The position numbers and the translations under genes were made by a program. From Bdellovibrionota bacterium (lineage in GTDB: Bacteria; Bdellovibrionota; FAC87; UBA2466; JACKAF01): a stretch of 64,000 bases of DNA. Each line of letters starts with the position of its first letter. Position 1 is the first letter of the stretch. The DNA is taken from contig JBGSIC010000018.1 of the NCBI GenBank assembly GCA_041751875.1, positions 32,723-96,722 on the forward strand. Reading direction: 5' to 3'. Below the pieces are notes generated by a model that had not been told where the DNA came from, did not search any database, and saw nothing but the letters and a program-made list of their open reading frames with translations. This document shows positions 18,148-60,930 of the stretch, piece after piece.

Positions 18148-19734
18148 CTACTCTGTGGGGGTCAAGAGTTCGCCCGCTTCTTGAAGATCGGCGGCTGCCT
18201 TTTCTCGACCGCGTTCCGCGGATTGACGGGCCAGAGTATCAATTAAACCTTGCGTGCCCGAACCATCTTCACCAAAGAACCGCTCTTCGAGAGCCGCATC
18301 GCGTGTGAAACCACCTGGTAATTCCTGTGCGGCTTTGAGTGCCTTGGCCCAAAACGCGCGATAGATATCGACGTCAAGACGACCTTTTTCCGTATAGCGG
18401 TCGGGGTGCTCGGCTGCCTGCGCGCGTATATCTTTTTCGGCATCGGCGTAAGCTTGACGGGCAAGTCGGCGGTGTTCGGGATTAAGGAAATCAAAAGGGA
18501 AGGGGGCGTTCATTTCGTCGCCATATTCATCTCGTAAACCCTGCCACTGCTGGACCATCATAAAAAGAAGGTCGTCGCCCGCTGAGGTGACCACTGGTAA
18601 CTGATTGCGAAGCGCGGCTTCCTGATCTTGGTCTATGAGCTCGTTCTGTTCTTGTTCGGCCCGTTCGCCCTGCGCCTGCATATTGAGCTGCTGCTGCATG
18701 AAATAAACGCCAAACGGGGTGCCGAAAAGCACGACGAGTAGACGCGCGGACTTCATGGTGCGCCCGGTGATACGTGATAAGTTCTTTAAGGGCAACCAGG
18801 CGCGGTTTAATAAACCCGGTTTTGTCCACGGGCCTAAGTCGTGAGGGACGGTAGCTCGGCGCAAGCGACGTCCCGCTGATTCCGGCATGTCGTCGATAGC
18901 TAGAGGACCGTTGATTAATGCGGCGGCTTGATCGCGTTCCGAATGCAAACTCTGTGAGTACCGCTCGGCTCGGCTTAAAAGTTGCTCCAAATTTTCTAGC
19001 TTGAGACTGCCGGAACTGGGATCGATAGCAAGGGACTGCAAAGCTTCCGCAGGCACGTGGGCTAAGCCCATTTGTTTAAGGGCTTGGGCGAGTTTCTCGG
19101 CCTTCGCATCGCGGTTGGTTACGTGAGTGCGAAGCTTGTTCTGCAAACCCTCAAGGTACTGATCTTTAACAAAGGGAATGCCGTTGCCGTCCTGGCGCGA
19201 ATGATCCAAAGCGTTGTCTGGAAGCGCGGGGGGAGTACCCGCTTTGCGTAATTTCTTGAGCTGCTTGGCGAACGCAGGAGCCTGCCCTTTTGCCCATTCC
19301 TTAAACTGTTCTTCGGGCATCGCTAAAATTGCTTTCTCGTGCTCACGTAACGTTTCTTCGAAATCCTTTACTTCCGCTTCGTAAGCCTTCATTTGGGGCA
19401 AGCGAGTGGCGGCATCCAGATGTTGATAACGTTGGGTGAGGGCCTTTTTATTGCCTCGTCCTAGTCGGTAGGCAAGATAAACACCGGCCGTAGAAACTGC
19501 CGTCACCGATCCATACAACAAGGGATCGTTCCAGTGGTCGGAACCGAAATTGGTTGTCTCCATCGCGGTCTTCGCGACTTCCCCGGCGGATTGAGCTTTT
19601 TCTCCCATCCAGGAAAGGGCTTGTCCGCAGAATTCCGTAAAGCCATTGGCGTGGGCGGGCGAAGGAAAGACGATTGAGAAAACTAGCAGAATCTGAACAA
19701 TCCAAAGATTCAATTTTGCAAAAATCGATTTCAC
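18148..19734 (-). CDS. secreted hypothetical protein (528 aa), no recognizable domain
   Basis: Signal peptide MKSIFAKLNLWIVQILLVFSIVFPSPAHA. Charged/coiled-coil-like central region and one internal hydrophobic segment (LLVVLFGTPFGVYF). Confidence 0.5.
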   Translation of the reverse strand: MKSIFAKLNLWIVQILLVFSIVFPSPAHANGFTEFCGQALSWMGEKAQSAGEVAKTAMETTNFGSDHWNDPLLYGSVTAVSTAGVYLAYRLGRGNKKALTQRYQHLDAATRLPQMKAYEAEVKDFEETLREHEKAILAMPEEQFKEWAKGQAPAFAKQLKKLRKAGTPPALPDNALDHSRQDGNGIPFVKDQYLEGLQNKLRTHVTNRDAKAEKLAQALKQMGLAHVPAEALQSLAIDPSSGSLKLENLEQLLSRAERYSQSLHSERDQAAALINGPLAIDDMPESAGRRLRRATVPHDLGPWTKPGLLNRAWLPLKNLSRITGRTMKSARLLVVLFGTPFGVYFMQQQLNMQAQGERAEQEQNELIDQDQEAALRNQLPVVTSAGDDLLFMMVQQWQGLRDEYGDEMNAPFPFDFLNPEHRRLARQAYADAEKDIRAQAAEHPDRYTEKGRLDVDIYRAFWAKALKAAQELPGGFTRDAALEERFFGEDGSGTQGLIDTLARQSAERGREKAAADLQEAGELLTPTE

Positions 19735-19774: not shown

Positions 19775-20143
19775 AGGTCACACTATGCCCTCACTCCTAT
19801 AACCAACATTCGTGCCAGGGGGAACGGGAATATTCCACCGTGATGTTGAGCGTTTTCGCTTGTTTTTCGAACCGGCGGCGCATTTTTGTCGGGCAGCTGG
19901 AAAAAGGGTCGACGGGGGCGTATTCCGTAAAGATACTAAGCGCGCCTCTCCCAACCGCACCAAGCCCCGATTCCGCAATAGATTGGGCACCTTCTCGTCT
20001 TTGCGTAGCCATTGCGTCTACGTTGCTTACACCCTTCAAAAACTCCCTATTGCTCCACCGCTAAGGCCCGAAATTAATTGGTTTTACAGATGCGATTTAC
20101 CCTCTATCTTGGCGCAGAGCTTGCTCTGTAAAGAGGAACAGCT

Positions 20144-23100
20144 TTGAGCCAACGACCGGGGGGCGGTACGCATCTCTTAATAAAAAGCATTCTGGGTCTC
20201 GCTCTTGTCAGCGCGTTTGCGGTTTTCGCGGACGAAGAGGGGTCCACTTTTCCCATCCAAAATGGGTACATGCGCCTTCAAGCGCATGCGCAAGCGGGTC
20301 GACTTCCTCCGAGCGAACTATTGCGCTATCTGAACTGGGGAGGAACTTCCACTTTCAACCGCCTTTTCGAAATCTACCAGTCGGAATTCTTTCGCCCATG
20401 GAGCAACAAGGAGGAGCGCAAGCGCCTTGAGGCTTTCTTGACCGAACAAGCCATTGCGTGGAGAGCTAGCGGTAGTGATGCTGCGGAACTCGGTTTCAAT
20501 CCGCTGGAGAGGCTCTCCGCTGATATTAGACGTTTTGTTCGCGAACAGTCTGTCGATCTCGATAAGCCGATGGGGTTTCACCGCGCAGAAGCACTAGCCC
20601 GCTCAACTGTCTCGACACGACTCTTGCGGTCCGAACGAGACAAACAGATTCGAAAACTCGCTCTGCAATTAGAAGATGAAGTCGATCCCCTGGCCCGCCA
20701 ACAACTAGCGGTTCCCCTAACGGATCGCTTTGGGCCATGGATCAAGGAAACGATGGGTGAAATTGCAGAAGAGAGTATGCGCCACCATCTGCGCTTGCGT
20801 CGCGCGGCCGCACAGGTCGATCCCGATTTAAAGTTCATGTTAGTCCCGGCTGCCGCTGATCTGAATTCGTTGGAAGGAGGGATAGAAATCTCTCCGGACG
20901 AACTCTTGCGGCTAGCCCCGGTCTATAGTCGCGAGGAGAAGTTTCCCATCGGATTAGCCATGCGATTTCGCGATCCCGCTAGAGACGGGGATTTTCGTTT
21001 GGTGGCGAGTCACCCGCGTTTGCAACCGCAGATGGTAAGCCATTTCAATGTAGCTGCTGATGAAACCCTTGCGGCGCTGATGCGTCTTCACACCTTTACA
21101 GACCCAGAAAAAGCCAAGGCGCTTTTTGCGATTCGTACGCAAGCGGATCACGCGAGCGGTCTTTTGTCGGGGACTTTTTCAGCGTGGGGGAGAGGGAGTT
21201 CGCCTGCCGAAGTATTAAAACACTTAGAGGCGAAAAAGTTTTCGTACGAGTCCATGATTTCCTATTTCGGAGATCGCGAGCGCGTACACGATCTGGTGCT
21301 TGCGCAAGTACTGCACGAGCCGCAAAAATGGCAGAAGCGGTATGAATTTTTAAAGCGTTACGGCGCGCTGGGCTCATCTGCGTTGAAGGGACTTAAGGCT
21401 GCAGCCAGCTCCGGAATGGCAGTCGTTCACTACTCTCACGCTCTGGTCGATGAAATGCGGAATTGGCCGGCCGATCTCAAGAGTTTCGCCCACTCGATAA
21501 AAAACAATGTTGATGTTCAGGCGATAAAATTTGGCGATGTACGGGCGAATAACTCTGGGTATTTGGCCAATTTCTTTCGCCGTTTATTTGGGCGCGTGCC
21601 GGCCGGTGTGGCCGCGCAGCCGGCGGTTCAGTCCAGAGGGGAAAGAGTCCAAAGTCCCAATGGAATGGTAGAAGGGGCAAAGCGTGTGGCGAGAGACGTT
21701 GCGATGGCGGTGGCCGGTGCGGGCGTTCTTTCTGGGGTGGCCATCGGCGCTCATGAGCTCGGTCTTCTCGACGACATCAGTTGGGATTTCTTTAAGGGCG
21801 CCGTAGAGGAATCATTTCGTACGCGTTCGCTTGCTTCCGATATGGGGGACCGTTTGGTTGAGCCCAGTAAGGGGTTTTTGGCCTCAGCGATGAAATGGCC
21901 AGCCTTCGCTGGCGTCGCTCTTGTTGCGGCGGCAACACCCGCGCTCTTGAAAAAAATGGGTAAAAGCGCCCGCGCGCAAGTGGAAGAATCAGACCGGCCG
22001 GTCGATGCACTTTTTACCTACCGACCGGCCGAAGGAGGTCAGATGCCCGCGGGTTTGGAAATTCCCATGAGGACGGATTTGACCTTTGGCGACAGCGAAG
22101 TACGCACGATACCGACTGAGGCGGCGGACGAAAACGTGGGTTTAGTCCATTCTCGGCGTCCGGTTGTGTCGCTGGCAGACGGGATGGTCCCCATTGCGCG
22201 TCCGCTGGGCCAAGCTCTTATCGGGCTTAGAGTCACAGATGCCAATCACCGAAGCCTTAAGCAAGGAAGCGATTTCGAAGTGGTTTATCGCCCCGAGAGA
22301 GATGCTTATTTTATTCGTTTGCTAAACCCAGAAATCGGCTCGGTTCATTATCGTGCGGAAGTGGAAGAAACTCCGAGTGGCTCCCATCGTTTAGACGTAC
22401 GCGGCACTTTGGCCTTAGATGATGTAGACGCGCAGAAAGCTTTGAAGGAGGCAATCGAAAGCTCGGGCTTTGACCGTTTGGGGCGACAAATGGGCCAGCG
22501 CATGACAAGGGGAGCTCTCGCCACAACAGGCGACTTGGAAGCCCTTTTATCGCAGAGTAACTCGTATCCGCTCATGAAAGGGGAAAGTCTTCCCGATTTA
22601 CCGACGGATGATGTCGGTAAGTATGAAAAGTTTCAAGTAGGCGGTTGCCTGAATGGTAATTGCACCGTGAGTAACGGCTTTGGTGCCTCCGCGCTAAACG
22701 CGCTTTTACAAGCGCAGGATCCGGAACTGCGTGCTGAAGTGCGAACGACTCTTCCCCTTCACCAGGATGGACGAGCCTTGGAAGGGCACGTGCGCACCTA
22801 TGTATACCGAGGAGACCAACTCGTAGACGTGCTGGACTTTACTTCCAGCAACATCCGGTACGGGGATATTTTCCGTCACATCATGCGCCGGATCACAGGA
22901 CGTCTTCCCAAGCCCCAGGAAAAAGCGAGCGCACCACCGGCGGACAAGAATGCGGTATTTTTCAACTGGGCGCGCACAGAAGGCAAATCTCTCTTAAAAG
23001 CGTTAGCCGATGATCGAAAGTTTTTGGAGGACCAACTTAAACGCCATCGCGTGAGCGATCAGTCTGATCCGTCCAAGCGTCTCTATGCGCTTCATAATTT

Positions 23101-23443
23101 AATGGAGGCCGTACTCGATCCCCACCAGAAGATCGAAGAAGTCGTTGAGCGTGTGGGAAGGCACGTTTCGTTGCCGGATGGGGAAACCGATCGCTACGCT
23201 TTATTCGACGCTATTTCGGCAGCCATTGAAAGGGAAGGTAAGCAAATTGACAAACTTTACGTTGAAAATCCCGGCAGAAATGATTTTGGTACACGTCGCC
23301 GGCACTTTAACCGTGTGAGCTTAGATCCAGTCGAGAAAGTAGCCCCGATGCAAGATGTGGCCCGCGCGATGGCGAGCACAAACGGACAACTCAGCCGAGG
23401 CGTGAAACGCTGCCGAGAAGCCCTAGCGAGTGTCGCTGATTAA
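20144..23443 (+). CDS. large secreted/membrane-associated hypothetical protein (1099 aa) with possible C-terminal transglutaminase-like Cys-His-Asp core
   Basis: TTG start with an AAGAGGAA SD. Signal peptide. Two central hydrophobic helices. C-terminal segment ...GNCTVSNGFGASALNALL...(about 45 aa)...GHVRTYVYRGDQLVDVLDFT resembles the C / HxW-EVY / D-x-T spacing of the transglutaminase-like cysteine-peptidase core. Confidence 0.5.
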   Translation: MSQRPGGGTHLLIKSILGLALVSAFAVFADEEGSTFPIQNGYMRLQAHAQAGRLPPSELLRYLNWGGTSTFNRLFEIYQSEFFRPWSNKEERKRLEAFLTEQAIAWRASGSDAAELGFNPLERLSADIRRFVREQSVDLDKPMGFHRAEALARSTVSTRLLRSERDKQIRKLALQLEDEVDPLARQQLAVPLTDRFGPWIKETMGEIAEESMRHHLRLRRAAAQVDPDLKFMLVPAAADLNSLEGGIEISPDELLRLAPVYSREEKFPIGLAMRFRDPARDGDFRLVASHPRLQPQMVSHFNVAADETLAALMRLHTFTDPEKAKALFAIRTQADHASGLLSGTFSAWGRGSSPAEVLKHLEAKKFSYESMISYFGDRERVHDLVLAQVLHEPQKWQKRYEFLKRYGALGSSALKGLKAAASSGMAVVHYSHALVDEMRNWPADLKSFAHSIKNNVDVQAIKFGDVRANNSGYLANFFRRLFGRVPAGVAAQPAVQSRGERVQSPNGMVEGAKRVARDVAMAVAGAGVLSGVAIGAHELGLLDDISWDFFKGAVEESFRTRSLASDMGDRLVEPSKGFLASAMKWPAFAGVALVAAATPALLKKMGKSARAQVEESDRPVDALFTYRPAEGGQMPAGLEIPMRTDLTFGDSEVRTIPTEAADENVGLVHSRRPVVSLADGMVPIARPLGQALIGLRVTDANHRSLKQGSDFEVVYRPERDAYFIRLLNPEIGSVHYRAEVEETPSGSHRLDVRGTLALDDVDAQKALKEAIESSGFDRLGRQMGQRMTRGALATTGDLEALLSQSNSYPLMKGESLPDLPTDDVGKYEKFQVGGCLNGNCTVSNGFGASALNALLQAQDPELRAEVRTTLPLHQDGRALEGHVRTYVYRGDQLVDVLDFTSSNIRYGDIFRHIMRRITGRLPKPQEKASAPPADKNAVFFNWARTEGKSLLKALADDRKFLEDQLKRHRVSDQSDPSKRLYALHNLMEAVLDPHQKIEEVVERVGRHVSLPDGETDRYALFDAISAAIEREGKQIDKLYVENPGRNDFGTRRRHFNRVSLDPVEKVAPMQDVARAMASTNGQLSRGVKRCREALASVAD

Positions 23444-26079
23444 GCAGCCCCTGAAGCTTCGAGATCCTGTTGCGGGCGCGATTGAGACCGTTTCGCGTTG
23501 CCTGTCCATGCTGAGTAAATGGCTTCCTCAGAAATCTGTTCCGGATGCACCAAAGAAATGACAGCCTGCTGAGGTTGCAGATATTTTTGGGCGACTCGCA
23601 GAATGGTTTCCGCGGTGACTTCCTGGATTTTCTTCGGGTATTCAAGAGAGTGTAAATGTCCGTAACCGTAAGTCTCATCCAAACCATAGAGCATAGCTTG
23701 GGAAGAATTGCGCTGCAGGTCTAGTTCGAAACGTCCCACGAGGTATTGCTTAGCGCGCGCGAGTTCTTTGGCACTCATCGGCTTATTTAGCACCTTGTCT
23801 AGTTCAGCGCGTATACCCGTAATGGATCGCTGCCATTTTTCGGGCGAAGTCCCAATATAAAATGCAAAGGTCCCCCGTTCGATGCTTTCGCTTTCCATGG
23901 GCGCTACCGTGTAGGCGAGACTCTGCTTGTCGCGCAACTCGAGGAACAGTCGTCCCCCTTGGCCCGACAAACAAGAAGACAACACCCGCAGAGCAAAACG
24001 GTCTTCATCATTTAACGTCGTGCCCAAAAAACCAATCAGCGCGTGCGCCTGAAAGAGGGGCGTTTTCACGGCCGAGCGGATACGAATTTGAGAAGGCGCA
24101 GAAATGTCCGCTGCTGGTAGGCTGGCTTTTCCCCGAGGACGCAAGGGCGCGACCAGGGACTGCAATTCTTCCATCCAGTCCTGGGGAGCAAAAGCCCCTA
24201 CCGTCGAAATCACGAGGCGTTCCTTATGAATGTAGTCGCGGTACCACTGTTTGAGCACGTCGGTGCTTAGTCCACCCACGGCTTCTTTCGTTCCAATCGA
24301 CGGGAAACCAAAACGATGGTTTTCGTACATAGCCGAAAGGAAATTGAGCTGGCACATCTGGCCGGGAGAGTCATTGATCGACTCAATCTCGCGCAGCGTG
24401 ATGTCCCTTTGGGTCTTAAATTCTTCTTCCGGAAAGGTCGGATTATAAAGGATATCCGACAAGATGGGCTTAATCCGGTTCCAGTGGTGAGAAACAAAAT
24501 CCACGCTGAGTCCGCAGGTGTTTTTTCCCGCAAACGCGCCGACCGAAGCGCCGAGAGATTCCAAAATTTTGGCCATCGCTAGCGAGGTATAATTCTGTGT
24601 GCCGGAAGTCCACAAAGTAGAGAACAGACTGGAAATCCCCAGATTGTGAGTTTGCTCTTCACGCGACCCGCCGCCTAAAAAGATAAAACGAAGCGAGGTG
24701 AGTGGCAGAGTGTTGTTACGTTTCCAGATAAACGAGCATTTCTCGACCACCTTTTTCTGAGGGGGATCCAAAGTGACACGGCTCTTGGTGACCTGAACCT
24801 TGGGAAGCTTGATGGCACCCCACAGTTGTTTCTTATCCAACTCGAATTTTTGTGGGTGCACAATGGATACAACGGGCTTGGCTTTCATGAGTGCCTGAAA
24901 AGCTAGCTGTACATCTGCGCCTGTGCACTCTGAAATCATTTCAAGGTAAGTTTTCTCAAATTCTGGGTCCTTGAAGTGCAGGTTGTAGTATCCGAGACGG
25001 CGAGCATAGCCCTCGACAGTTTGCTTGCCGTAAAAAATTTCTGATTCCATGCCGCTTTTCACTCTGTCGAGTTCTTCGGCATGTAAGCCCTCGGCTGCCA
25101 CTTCCGCGAGAATTTTCATCATCTCTGCGACAGCTTCATAAAGTTTATCGGGAGCGGTGAGTAGGCTAAGGGTCGCAACGCCGCAACGATCGGTGGCAAC
25201 GATCCCCATATCGGCGTCCATGGCGAGGCGCGTTTCTTTCACCAGTCGTTGATAAAAACGGCTGCTTTCCCCTTGTCCAACCGCGGTGGCCAGAAGGTCC
25301 AGAGCGGCGACGCTGGGGTCACGGAGCGCAGGACTGCGAAAGCCAATTTGCAAATGGCACTCTTGTACGTCACGGGCAAGGGTGGCCATCGGCTGCCCAC
25401 TGAGAGAGGCAAGGCTGAGAGGCTTTTCTTTAGCTTTCGACTTAGGCGCCTTCCTTACCTTTGCAAACTTCTTTTCCGCAAGTTCGTAGGCTTCTTGCGG
25501 GTCAATGTCGCCTACCAAAAAGAGAGAAAAGGTTCCCGCGTGGTAATTTTCTTGGAAATACTTTTTGAGTGTCGCAGCCGAAAAGCCGCCGACTGTTTTT
25601 TCAAAGCCGAGCACCGGGCGGCCGTAGGGGGTTCCCGGAAAGGTCTTTGCCCATAGGTTGGTGAAAACCATTTTGGACGGAGAATCATAGGCACGCTTGA
25701 TTTCTTCCAAAATCACTTCGCGTTCCCGATCCATTTCCACGCGATCAAAGGTGGCGTTCTGAACGGCGTCGGCGATTACGTCTAGACCGTTCTCAAAAAA
25801 GCGACTTGCGAGCGTGGTGTAGTACACGGTTTCTTCGAATGAGGTGTAGGCGTTGACTTCGCCTCCCCAGGTTTCGATATCCAGAGCAATCTGGCCGACT
25901 TTGCGTTTCTTGGTGCCCTTGAAAAGGGCGTGTTCAATAAAATGGGAAATCCCGGCCAAAGGGGCGGGCTCATGCGCACTTCCGCGGGCGACCCAGGCCT
26001 GGATGCTCACCACCGGAGCGTTGTGCATCTCCACAACAAAAAGTGGTATTCCGCTCTTGAGAGTGTATGTTTTGACCAT
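23440..26079 (-). CDS. M16-family zinc metallopeptidase (tandem insulinase/pitrilysin-like halves)
   Basis: Inverted zinc motif HFIEHALF in the N-terminal half. 879 aa consistent with two M16 domains. Confidence 0.85.
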   Translation of the reverse strand: MVKTYTLKSGIPLFVVEMHNAPVVSIQAWVARGSAHEPAPLAGISHFIEHALFKGTKKRKVGQIALDIETWGGEVNAYTSFEETVYYTTLASRFFENGLDVIADAVQNATFDRVEMDREREVILEEIKRAYDSPSKMVFTNLWAKTFPGTPYGRPVLGFEKTVGGFSAATLKKYFQENYHAGTFSLFLVGDIDPQEAYELAEKKFAKVRKAPKSKAKEKPLSLASLSGQPMATLARDVQECHLQIGFRSPALRDPSVAALDLLATAVGQGESSRFYQRLVKETRLAMDADMGIVATDRCGVATLSLLTAPDKLYEAVAEMMKILAEVAAEGLHAEELDRVKSGMESEIFYGKQTVEGYARRLGYYNLHFKDPEFEKTYLEMISECTGADVQLAFQALMKAKPVVSIVHPQKFELDKKQLWGAIKLPKVQVTKSRVTLDPPQKKVVEKCSFIWKRNNTLPLTSLRFIFLGGGSREEQTHNLGISSLFSTLWTSGTQNYTSLAMAKILESLGASVGAFAGKNTCGLSVDFVSHHWNRIKPILSDILYNPTFPEEEFKTQRDITLREIESINDSPGQMCQLNFLSAMYENHRFGFPSIGTKEAVGGLSTDVLKQWYRDYIHKERLVISTVGAFAPQDWMEELQSLVAPLRPRGKASLPAADISAPSQIRIRSAVKTPLFQAHALIGFLGTTLNDEDRFALRVLSSCLSGQGGRLFLELRDKQSLAYTVAPMESESIERGTFAFYIGTSPEKWQRSITGIRAELDKVLNKPMSAKELARAKQYLVGRFELDLQRNSSQAMLYGLDETYGYGHLHSLEYPKKIQEVTAETILRVAQKYLQPQQAVISLVHPEQISEEAIYSAWTGNAKRSQSRPQQDLEASGAA

Positions 26080-26128
26080 TGTGAGCCCTTTATTGGAAAA
26101 ATCTCAGTCTACCTGCAAGAACCTACCG

Positions 26129-27268
26129 GTGACAATTCCCTTCGGTATTTACGTTCACATCCCGTTTTGCGTGCATAAGTGTTCTTACTGTGACTTCTAC
26201 TCTTTTACTCAGTATGGCCGGAACGACTTTGAGCGTCTTGAGGCGCAGCTCGTAAACGAGGTGCGTCAGATGGCCGCTTATATAAAAGAACGCCAGGGTA
26301 ACCTATCGCCGGTCACCAGTGTTTTTTTTGGTGGGGGCACTCCTTCCTTGATGCCCACCTCGTCGATTCAAAAAATTTGCGATACCTTGGCAGAAGAATT
26401 TCCTTTTGCAAAAGAGGTTGAGATCACACTAGAGGCGAATCCGGAAACCGTGGATGCGAGGTTTGCCGCCTCCCTTTTTGCGACACCGGTGAATCGGGTG
26501 AGCTTGGGAGCCCAAAGTTTTCAGGCCAAACATCTAAAATCTTTAGAACGGTTGGGTAGCGCGGAAAGTATTGTTTCTGCGGTCGGCTTTCTGAAAGAAG
26601 CGGGCTTTACGAATTTCAATCTTGATCTCATCACGGGAATCCCCGGACAAAGCGAAGAGGAGTTTCTGGAGGACATTGAAAAAGCGGTAAGCTTGGGGCC
26701 CACCCATCTGAGCTTTTACACCCTTACTTTAAAGAGCAAGCACCCGCTGGCCACTCAACTCCCCAGTGAAGACAAGGCTGCGGATCTGTATGAGGCAGGT
26801 ATCCGACGTTTGCAGATTTTGGGTTTTGATCAGTACGAGATTTCTAATTTCGCGCGTCCTGGTTTAGGTTGCCGACACAACCTTCTCTATTGGAGTGGGG
26901 GCGATTTCCTAGGCATTGGGCCATCGGCGTCGAGCCGCTTTTTCTGGGAGAGGGTGTTTCACCACCGAAAGCAAAAGGCCCACTTCGAAACTTACTTGGA
27001 GCTAAACGAATTTAGAAGTCTGCCATTTGAAACGACCACCAAAGCCCAAACTGTCCTCGAAGCGAGCTTTCTGGAACTGAGAACAAACGATGGTGTGGAT
27101 TTGGATCAGTTTCAAGCCCGATACGGGTACGACTTTAGAAAAGCAAAAAAGTATGAGCTTTTTGCAAAAAACGCGCTGATCCAGGAAAAGGACAACCGCC
27201 TTGTCTTAAGCCACCGCGGCCGCCTTCTTGCTGATTCTGTTACCGAGCAGTTGGTCGACTGGATCTGA
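26129..27268 (+). CDS. hemW: radical SAM heme chaperone HemW / HemN-like coproporphyrinogen III oxidase family
   Basis: GTG start gives MTIPFGIYVHIPFCVHKCSYCDF (CxxxCxxC) plus the HemN_C region. The upstream track extension would overlap the M16 gene start. Confidence 0.8.
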   Translation: MTIPFGIYVHIPFCVHKCSYCDFYSFTQYGRNDFERLEAQLVNEVRQMAAYIKERQGNLSPVTSVFFGGGTPSLMPTSSIQKICDTLAEEFPFAKEVEITLEANPETVDARFAASLFATPVNRVSLGAQSFQAKHLKSLERLGSAESIVSAVGFLKEAGFTNFNLDLITGIPGQSEEEFLEDIEKAVSLGPTHLSFYTLTLKSKHPLATQLPSEDKAADLYEAGIRRLQILGFDQYEISNFARPGLGCRHNLLYWSGGDFLGIGPSASSRFFWERVFHHRKQKAHFETYLELNEFRSLPFETTTKAQTVLEASFLELRTNDGVDLDQFQARYGYDFRKAKKYELFAKNALIQEKDNRLVLSHRGRLLADSVTEQLVDWI

Positions 27269-44760: not shown

Positions 44761-44965
44761 TTTTCGGGTAACTCTTAAGCTCCCCTGTCCGGTGCGTGGT
44801 TGGGAATAATTCTAACCTACGAGTATTTACTCGGGTGCTTTCCCTTATTGCTGTGCGCATACCTGCTTGCAGGGAGCCTAAGGTAATAACAGAGTGCCCC
44901 CCTATCTCTGATAGGGTTAAGAATTATCCCGCTACGGCCCATGATGGGGGAGCTTTAAACTCCGT

Positions 44966-59560: not shown

Positions 59561-60904
59561 TTAGAACGCGTTGCCGAATTCCACGTTGAATGTGGTGCCT
59601 TCTCGCGAAAGACCAAAGTCGGCGCGCAAGACCATTCGGTAGTTCCAAATGGAACGAAGCCCCAGCCCCACCGCTCCATGAAAGGGGCCGAACGTGACAG
59701 GTTGGTTTTTGTTCCACACGCGGGCAATATCTAGAAACGGAACAAACCCCACTGTGACTCTTTGGCGTTTGAAATAAAAAGTAATCGGATCCCAACGCAT
59801 TTCAACACTCGTCGCAAACTTGATATCGCCGATATATTGGTTTTCATAAACACCGCGCAAAAAGCGCGAAAAGCCAAAGCCTTGCGAAGGGTCTTGACCC
59901 CCGGTAGACCCGAGTTCGTAAAAGGGCGTATTGCCTACCATGGCTTCGAAAAAAGTTCGGTGCGCCAAGGTAAGAGTGCGATCCAAAGGCCAGTACTTAC
60001 GAAACGTATAGGTTCCACGAAAGAAATTGTAGTCGCTGCCAATGACGTTGTTGTAAATCGTCAAGTAAAGCTCGTGTGACGTTCCCCGCGCCGGGTAAGG
60101 CTCGAAATCGGTGGTGTCATTGATGATGGCAACGCCTAGGTAATTGGTGCGCCCACCCGCGATCCCCACGGGTTTTTCGATGTCCATCAAACTTCCCGTC
60201 GGATAGCTAATCGTCGTAGTTGCCACACCAAAAACCGGTCCGATTGTCAGGTATTTTCCGAAGCGCTTTAAAACTTCCACATCCAGACGCGGTTGCAGGC
60301 GGGTGTTGAGATAAATGGGATTTTCATTTTCCACCCAGTCATCGTTCACGTCAGTCGTGTTCGAAATACCAAAATAGCGGCGCATGATATCGCGGTTGAG
60401 ACTGACGCGTCCTCTAATGCGAAACTGGCCATCGAAAGCGTGCGGTGAATCCACCAAAAGAAAGTGGCGCATTCGACCGCGATCGCTGGCGAGCACCTGC
60501 CCGGAGAGCTTAAGTTTGTGAGGATCCTGGCGGCGAATGTTGTAGAGAGAAACGTGCACACCGAGGTTACTACCCTGGTGTTTGGTAATAAAGAAAATGG
60601 GCAAACCTTGCACAGTCCAAGGATCACCCATGAGTTCAAATGATTTCTTTTTGATGAGTCGATCGAGACTCAATACCGCTTTTTCCCCCAGACTTGTGAC
60701 GGCCGGGGGAGGCGTGACGGCCTCTAGTACCGTGTTGAGTGGGCTGCGCGTGGGCGGTTTCGCAACGGCTTTGTACTTTTGGGATGAGGCCGGTCGGCGA
60801 ACAGGGGGTTGTTTTTTTAGGGCCTTTTTTTTGGCGGCTTCCCCCTGGGGACACACAGCCGCACACGCCAGAAAAAGGCAAAGCAATACAACGCGTCGCA
60901 ACAT
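59561..60904 (-). CDS. Omp85/Bac_surface_Ag-family outer-membrane beta-barrel protein with Lys/Pro-rich N-terminal extension
   Basis: C-terminal blocks LRGVYENQYIGD, PFLDIARVW and TFNVEFGNAF align with BamA/TamA barrel motifs. Signal peptide from Met at 60904. Confidence 0.65.
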   Translation of the reverse strand: MLRRVVLLCLFLACAAVCPQGEAAKKKALKKQPPVRRPASSQKYKAVAKPPTRSPLNTVLEAVTPPPAVTSLGEKAVLSLDRLIKKKSFELMGDPWTVQGLPIFFITKHQGSNLGVHVSLYNIRRQDPHKLKLSGQVLASDRGRMRHFLLVDSPHAFDGQFRIRGRVSLNRDIMRRYFGISNTTDVNDDWVENENPIYLNTRLQPRLDVEVLKRFGKYLTIGPVFGVATTTISYPTGSLMDIEKPVGIAGGRTNYLGVAIINDTTDFEPYPARGTSHELYLTIYNNVIGSDYNFFRGTYTFRKYWPLDRTLTLAHRTFFEAMVGNTPFYELGSTGGQDPSQGFGFSRFLRGVYENQYIGDIKFATSVEMRWDPITFYFKRQRVTVGFVPFLDIARVWNKNQPVTFGPFHGAVGLGLRSIWNYRMVLRADFGLSREGTTFNVEFGNAF

Positions 60905-60930
60905 GGCGGCCTGGATCTTCACGACCTGAC

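Follow-up and report, generated by a model that had tools for sequence, protein, structure and literature searches.

A probably exported and membrane-anchored protein with a predicted transglutaminase-like Cys-His-Asp core represents a rare, unannotated family in a Bdellovibrionota genome

The DNA analysed here, a 64,000-nucleotide stretch from a Bdellovibrionota bacterium (assembly GCA_041751875.1, contig JBGSIC010000018.1, forward-strand positions 32,723 to 96,722; hereafter the window, whose own numbering is used throughout), carries an uninterrupted open reading frame (ORF) of 1099 aa that is the longest of its neighbourhood. An earlier reading of the sequence alone (the original prediction) had proposed that this ORF encodes a secreted protein with a possible transglutaminase-like thiol-enzyme core near its C-terminus. 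The ORF is present and real, and its product is identical in sequence to the NCBI-derived protein P0001. Conservation was assessed in three alignments of its family, comprising seven close members, ten members over the C-terminal 475 residues and nine members over the full length, and structure was predicted with AlphaFold2 (AF2), for which confidence is given as the predicted local distance difference test (pLDDT). The features of the gene and its product are as follows:

20083..20110, + strand: candidate sigma-70-like promoter TTTACA-16-TATCTT within the 409-nt divergent intergenic region (consensus scan, 9/12 matches; weak)
20133..20136, + strand: Shine-Dalgarno sequence GAGG, 7 nt ahead of the TTG start (read off the sequence, with the start-codon context)
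20144..23443, + strand: the ORF, 1099 aa plus stop, TTG start codon, monocistronic
20144..20233, + strand: signal-peptide-like N-terminus, residues 1-30, with an R/K n-region, a 15-residue hydrophobic core and VFA followed by DEE (hydropathy)
20234..21673, + strand: N-terminal domain, residues 31-510, weakly conserved and predicted to be mostly helical (family alignments; single-sequence AF2 at low confidence)
21686..21754, + strand: hydrophobic helix 1, residues 515-537, VAMAVAGAGVLSGVAIGAH (hydropathy 1.69 over segment 515-542)
21875..21943, + strand: hydrophobic helix 2, residues 578-600, ...WPAFAGVALVAAATPALL, then KKMGK (hydropathy 1.50 over segment 577-605)
22052..22363, + strand: beta-sandwich-like domain, residues 637-740, ahead of the catalytic core (AF2 strands E13-16 to E109-116 of the 475-residue segment, pLDDT 82-96)
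22424..22849, + strand: predicted transglutaminase-like (papain-fold) catalytic domain, residues 761-902, with four helices, the catalytic helix 840-858 and strands 862-871, 882-889 and 892-897
22661..22663, + strand: Cys840, proposed nucleophile, opening the catalytic helix (invariant 10/10; model residue 216, at the helix start)
22787..22789, + strand: His882, proposed general base, at the start of strand 882-889 (invariant 10/10; model strand E258-265)
22835..22837, + strand: Asp898 in a D-F/V-T/S-P motif, proposed third triad residue, directly after strand 892-897 (invariant 10/10; AF2 model)
22853..22939, + strand: linker, residues 904-932, of variable length and poorly conserved (pLDDT 39-45; gappy alignment columns)
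22946..23437, + strand: C-terminal helical bundle, residues 935-1098, with W942, a D-P-x-D-P-x-x-Q-L-Y motif and Cys1090

The signal peptide proposed for this protein corresponds to a hydrophobic segment at residues 6-31 with a Kyte-Doolittle peak of 2.28, and the two central transmembrane or hydrophobic helices of the original prediction were recovered as segments of moderate hydrophobicity. Helix 2 aligns across all seven close members (7/7) and is followed by a basic patch. The N-terminal domain gave no match in Pfam or the PDB; it contains a P-x-x-W-x-x-R-Y motif at residues 393-400, and W199 is its sole residue invariant in all nine full-length members. The beta-sandwich-like domain is marked by the conserved motif D-Y-D/E-V-L-Y-x-P-x-R-D-x-Y-F-x-R. 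The Cys...His...Asp block was located where it had been described near the C-terminus (nt 22661-22837), with VGGCLNGNC at residue 832 (nt 22637), EGHVRTYVY at residue 880 (nt 22781) and VDVLDFT at residue 894 (nt 22823). Besides, the protein has three cysteines in total (835, 840 and 1090) and no Walker A motif, in agreement with the proposed absence of nucleotide-binding motifs.

When 1.84 billion cluster representatives were scanned exhaustively with P0001 by HMMER, there were six clear homologues (P0002-P0007; E 8e-60 to 3e-32, 26-32% identity), in which the similarity was strongest over approximately residues 575-1094 and of which P0005 is apparently truncated. The same scan yielded three distant homologues (P0008, P0009 and P0011; E 1e-5 to 8e-4), which were recovered at E 1.7e-27 to 3.8e-16 by a C-terminal profile of the seven close members. 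None of these nine relatives carries a Pfam domain in a scan at E<=0.01, and scans of the full-length protein against Pfam, NCBIfam and PADLOC gave no match. Sequence and profile searches of PDB chains with the full protein and with the family alignments produced helical or noise matches only, while a word-indexed search of 5.8 billion proteins returned the query alone, whether it was run with one sequence or with the family alignment. Moreover, no relative of the protein was found in a contig scan of 185,579 GTDB species representatives, none of the catalytic-domain alignment in metagenome contigs and viral contigs, no match to the protein in plasmids by tblastn, and no paralogue within the window. 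Since the HMMER relatives are few and devoid of Pfam domains and the database scans were empty, the family is real, very rare and unannotated.

A C...H...D pattern in one sequence alone is meaningless, and it is the conservation across the family that raises it above chance. Pairwise identity to the query in the ten-member C-terminal alignment is 18-29%, and only six columns are invariant (G775, Y808, G834, C840, H882 and D898); the nine-sequence full-length alignment has only eight (W199, L705, G775, Y808, G834, C840, H882 and D898). Because three of the six invariant positions in so diverged a family (17-29% pairwise identity) are Cys, His and Asp, and because their spacing is conserved, C840, H882 and D898 are the predicted catalytic triad, for which the alignment provides strong evidence. 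In all ten members Cys and His are 40-45 residues apart and His and Asp 16-21, P0001 itself being C-42-H-16-D. The conserved Cys is C840 and not C835, since P0003 has R and P0004 has G in place of C835, whereas C840 is invariant in the seven-member alignment. In the close members the Cys opens C-x-V-G-N-G-F-G-x-A-S, followed by L-R-A-E-V-R, the His lies in G-H-x-R-x-Y-x-Y and the Asp in L-V-D-V-x-D-F-T-P; in the distant members the corresponding motifs are C-x-Q-C-D-G-S-N-x-L-F, a bare H and D-V-T-P. Additionally, Cys1090 (window 23411-23413), at a distance of nine residues from the C-terminal end, is shared by all seven close members, and it is conceivable that it pairs with C840 in a regulatory disulfide with the active-site region.

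An AF2 model of residues 625-1099 was built on the ten-sequence alignment and reached a mean pLDDT of 81 and a predicted template modelling score (pTM) of 0.55, while a single-sequence model (pLDDT 37.6) was of no use. The modelled order of elements is a beta-sandwich-like domain at 637-740, a helical region at 761-830, the helix at 840-858, strands at 862-871, 882-889 and 892-897, the linker at 904-932 and the helical bundle at 935-1098. In segment numbering the helix spans 216-234 and starts at C216, which is C840, and the strands that come after it span 238-247, 258-265 and 268-273; the R-A-E-V-R motif sits on the first of these strands. The papain-like core has been defined as a helix that opens with the catalytic Cys and a following antiparallel sheet whose strands 2 and 3 provide the His and a polar residue (PMC10318531). 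The model of P0001 contains the Cys helix followed by strands, as expected of this superfamily (SCOP d.3.1; Pfam clan Peptidase_CA, CL0125), with the family-conserved H882 on strand 2 and D898 beside strand 3 (10/10 for both). The triad residues fall on canonical secondary-structure elements at a model pLDDT of about 80-90. Because the modelled elements match the published core definition, the C-terminal core is predicted to be papain/transglutaminase-like. The AF2 model thus supports the proposed core at the level of secondary structure, with the Cys at a helix N-terminus and the His and Asp on or next to the strands that follow.

The predicted location of the protein rests on its N-terminus and its central hairpin. 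Signal-peptide-like N-termini are present in P0001-P0004, P0008, P0009 and P0011, and similar segments occur in in-frame extensions upstream of the called starts of two further members, whose public gene calls probably start too late:

L004, 5492-5716: in-frame extension ...KPVFHLVLCLALFSSPGYA followed by EPP, upstream of the called start of P0006
L006, 5797-6000: in-frame extension ...IGFLAKAALWTVCLSCVHTTA followed by QSK, upstream of the called start of P0007

The hairpin is strongly hydrophobic in P0004 (3.09 for helix 1 and 2.08 for helix 2), P0006 (2.26 and 1.76) and P0007 (2.34 and 1.95), and it is absent from the distant P0008, P0009 and P0011. Since it is so hydrophobic in these three homologues, the protein appears to be membrane-anchored with both large domains outside the cytoplasm, which makes the claim that it is secreted doubtful. 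The host has two membranes, given that the window encodes an Omp85-family outer-membrane protein (59561-60922, - strand; NCBIfam NF047779, 226 bits). Judged from these segments, the simplest reading is that the N-terminal domain would be exported, the two-helix hairpin would serve as an anchor and the catalytic region would lie on the same periplasmic side, so that the protein probably faces the periplasm.

Taken together, these results make it likely that P0001 is an exported, probably inner-membrane-anchored enzyme whose C-terminal region comprises a beta-sandwich, a transglutaminase-like (papain-fold) catalytic domain and a helical bundle. Several observations weigh against this interpretation. 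Transglut_core (PF01841) was not matched by hmmscan either in the full protein (E<=1) or in the nine homologues (E<=0.01), and nine catalytic-domain segments of approximately 150-160 residues searched against Pfam at E<=10 showed no match to Transglut_core or any other Peptidase_CA family. The comparison by hhalign of the family profile with a PF01841 alignment of 122 sequences (120 PF01841-annotated proteins plus the 3ISR and 6G49 fragments, a narrow set of 3ISR relatives) gave P values of 0.08-0.44 and a probability of <1%. Foldseek searches of the whole model against the PDB and BFVD retrieved noise only (in the PDB, CorA with a template modelling score of 0.13), and the AF2 model itself rests on a shallow alignment of only ten sequences. 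As for the topology, the hairpin is weaker in P0001 (1.69 and 1.50) than in the three homologues mentioned above, and basic residues flank its outer sides (KRVAR before helix 1 and KKMGKSAR after helix 2), so that the positive-inside rule would put the hairpin-flanking domains in the cytoplasm, at odds with the signal peptide.

Since hmmscan, hhalign and Foldseek were all without support, P0001 is not demonstrable as a Transglut_core member by sequence. In a permissive hhalign run C fell on C, R-A-E-V on I-P-A-R, H on H and D-F-T on D-P-T, but this alignment is non-significant and is an anecdote rather than a test. The thiol-enzyme core of the original prediction is thus upheld by the invariance of the triad, the AF2 layout and a TgpA-like spacing and finds no backing in profile or Foldseek searches. 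The assignment to the superfamily, as far as the model allows, stands at the level of fold and active-site logic.

Among the closest known proteins is TgpA of Pseudomonas aeruginosa (PA2873; PDB 6G49/6G4H; PF01841). It has a Cys-His-Asp triad spaced C-44-H-16-D, nearly the same as C-42-H-16-D here, and it resides in the inner membrane, with a catalytic domain that is predicted to protrude on the periplasmic side (PMC3507681), as is predicted for the protein described here; transglutaminase activity has been measured in vitro for its residues 180-544 (PMC3507681). However, TgpA carries the PF01841 signature G-x-C...IPAR...H-A-W-V-E...D-P-T, which hidden Markov model (HMM) searches do not find in P0001, where the corresponding motifs are C-x-V-G-N-G-F-G, R-A-E-V-R, G-H-x-R-x-Y-x-Y and D-F-T-P. 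The architectures also differ: TgpA has six transmembrane helices, five of them N-terminal (DUF3488) (PMC3507681), whereas P0001 combines a signal peptide, a helical N-terminal domain of approximately 480 residues, a two-helix hairpin and a C-terminal helical bundle. The TgpA-type arrangement DUF3488 - Transglut_core - DUF4129 is not found in P0001, which has no Pfam matches and only a signal-like segment and two hydrophobic helices. A second point of reference is the group of bacterial transglutaminase-like putative cysteine proteases (PF01841), for example 3ISR of Cytophaga hutchinsonii, which share with P0001 the succession of a conserved aromatic in x-x-Y, G-x-C, a helix, a strand (IPAR versus RAEVR), the His and D-x-T; 3ISR has 34 residues from C to H and 15 from H to D. 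Compared with this group, the helix-to-strand segment is approximately 6 residues longer and the strand-to-His loop is shorter in P0001, and a greedy hhalign alignment matches C, H and D but is non-significant (P=0.44, probability 0.1%).

Other branches of the papain-like superfamily have to be weighed at this point, since the core could belong to an NlpC/P60- or CHAP-type peptidoglycan amidase/endopeptidase, or to a periplasmic protease of the BTLCP/LapG type, with a role in cell-wall or adhesin processing. The Cys helix followed by the His and polar strands is common to all these families (PMC10318531), sequence methods cannot separate the branches here, and a substrate in the cell wall or among adhesins would be in keeping with a periplasmic location. 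NlpC/P60 and CHAP cell-wall hydrolases have a papain-like core with the Cys at a helix N-terminus and the His on a later strand and are extracytoplasmic, while BTLCP/LapG proteins (MEROPS C93, PF06035) are periplasmic bacterial transglutaminase-like Cys-His-Asp enzymes, which one and the same section of the papain-like classification treats together with Transglut_core (PMC10318531). Nevertheless, the C-42-H-16-D arrangement with Asp as the third residue, together with an alpha-helical region and a beta-sandwich ahead of the core, fits transglutaminase-like proteins, and neither an HMM match nor a top structural match assigned P0001 to BTLCP/LapG, NlpC/P60 or CHAP. We regard membership of one of these other branches as quite unlikely.

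The genomic context was also considered, and the neighbours of the gene are ordinary chromosomal, housekeeping genes encoding DnaJ/CbpA-like, DUF72, histone-deacetylase-family, HemN-like and VTT-domain proteins; they also include genes for proteins with diaminopimelate (or ornithine/arginine) decarboxylase and aspartate kinase domains. The features closest to the gene are as follows:

18148-19734, - strand: 528-aa ORF divergent to the gene of P0001, with hydrophobic segments and an N-terminus resembling a signal peptide (no match in Pfam, NCBIfam or PADLOC)
23440-26079, - strand: convergent gene for a double-M16 (insulinase-type) peptidase of 879 aa, the two stop codons overlapping by 4 nt
25853-27268, + strand: HemN-like ORF, whose longest reading overlaps the 5' end of the M16 gene by about 227 nt

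The contigs of P0002, P0003, P0004, P0006, P0007 and P0008 have no neighbour in common with the window or with each other, and there is no synteny. These observations bear on the possibility that P0001 acts as an effector or toxin after secretion or translocation, in which case its hairpin would insert into a prey or host membrane and its thiol-enzyme domain would modify target proteins. The large size of the protein, its multi-domain organization with a signal peptide, the only moderate hydrophobicity (1.5-1.7) of its bilobed hydrophobic segment, and the rarity and patchy distribution of a family whose distant members are without the hairpin would all be compatible with such a role, and papain-fold toxin domains are well known (PMC10318531). 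On the other hand, no secretion-system, chaperone or immunity gene is adjacent to a gene surrounded by housekeeping neighbours (histone-deacetylase-family, M16 peptidase, HemN-like), nothing is conserved beside the homologues, and viral and plasmid collections contain no relative. Moreover, the hairpin of P0004, P0006 and P0007, strongly hydrophobic as noted above, resembles an ordinary transmembrane hairpin. The transmembrane hairpin and the housekeeping context thus count somewhat against the secreted effector of a predator, and we consider an effector or toxin role improbable.

Regarding the individual neighbours, the 528-aa ORF is a second orphan envelope protein; a functional link between it and P0001 was considered and discarded, given that the two show no similarity and that this neighbour is not kept beside the homologues. 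A 111-aa ORF (19812-20147, + strand) was likewise rejected as a translationally coupled gene, since its Arg-rich translation is implausible and it overlaps the promoter-like site; its TGA stop overlaps the TTG start of the gene of P0001 (TTGA), it has no Pfam match, and it is probably not a gene. The HemN-like ORF probably starts further downstream, because its longest reading overlaps the 5' end of the M16 gene. The M16 peptidase has no close relative among the 185,579 GTDB species representatives. Within the window as a whole, 11 of the 23 ORFs scanned had no Pfam or NCBIfam match, six proteins were found in a collection of 15 billion proteins, all of them singletons at 90% identity, and a 6S (SsrS) RNA gene was identified at 44779-44954 (+ strand; Rfam RF00013, full length, 82.9 bits; gathering score 46.4). 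The lineage from which this genome derives appears to be poorly sampled.

For the envelope enzyme considered likely above, we infer export, topology, catalytic competence and chemistry as follows. A Sec-type signal peptide (residues 1-30) would export the N-terminal helical domain, and the hydrophobic helices 515-537 and 578-600 would form a hairpin that leaves the C-terminal region in the periplasm as well. If the chemistry follows that of the superfamily, Cys840 would lose its proton to His882, which Asp898 would hold in orientation, and the resulting thiolate may attack the amide carbonyl of an envelope substrate, either in a peptide bond or in a Gln side chain, giving a thioester acyl-enzyme. 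This intermediate could be resolved by water, in which case the protein would act as a protease, amidase or deamidase, or by an amine, leading to transamidation or cross-linking; the data do not discriminate between protease, amidase or deamidase activity and transglutaminase chemistry. The beta-sandwich, the family-specific N-terminal domain and the C-terminal bundle presumably give specificity or regulation.

A more far-reaching interpretation would make P0001 the first representative of an envelope-enzyme family that has so far gone unrecognised, with approximately ten clusters in 1.84 billion representatives and confined to under-sampled diderm lineages. The thiol domain would then be combined with an exported helical domain of 480 residues, a membrane hairpin and a bundle in which C1090 is a possible redox latch on the active-site Cys, and the protein would carry out an as yet undescribed modification of the envelope or serve as an effector against prey or host. 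We find this unlikely. P0001 probably represents a new and strongly diverged family within the transglutaminase-like thiol-enzyme superfamily, which would be an unsurprising branch. Nothing is overturned by such an addition, and the superfamily is known to harbour many divergent families of this kind.

If confirmed, the family would bring a very divergent group with a distinct domain architecture into the transglutaminase-like branch of the papain-fold superfamily. C840, H882 and D898 would then provide an active site open to testing in about ten proteins that are now called hypothetical and lack annotation in all current databases. Little is understood about periplasmic transglutaminase-like enzymes: TgpA plays an important part in P. 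aeruginosa viability, yet no substrate is named in the paper that describes it (PMC3507681). An additional divergent example could help to define the roles of these enzymes in the bacterial envelope.

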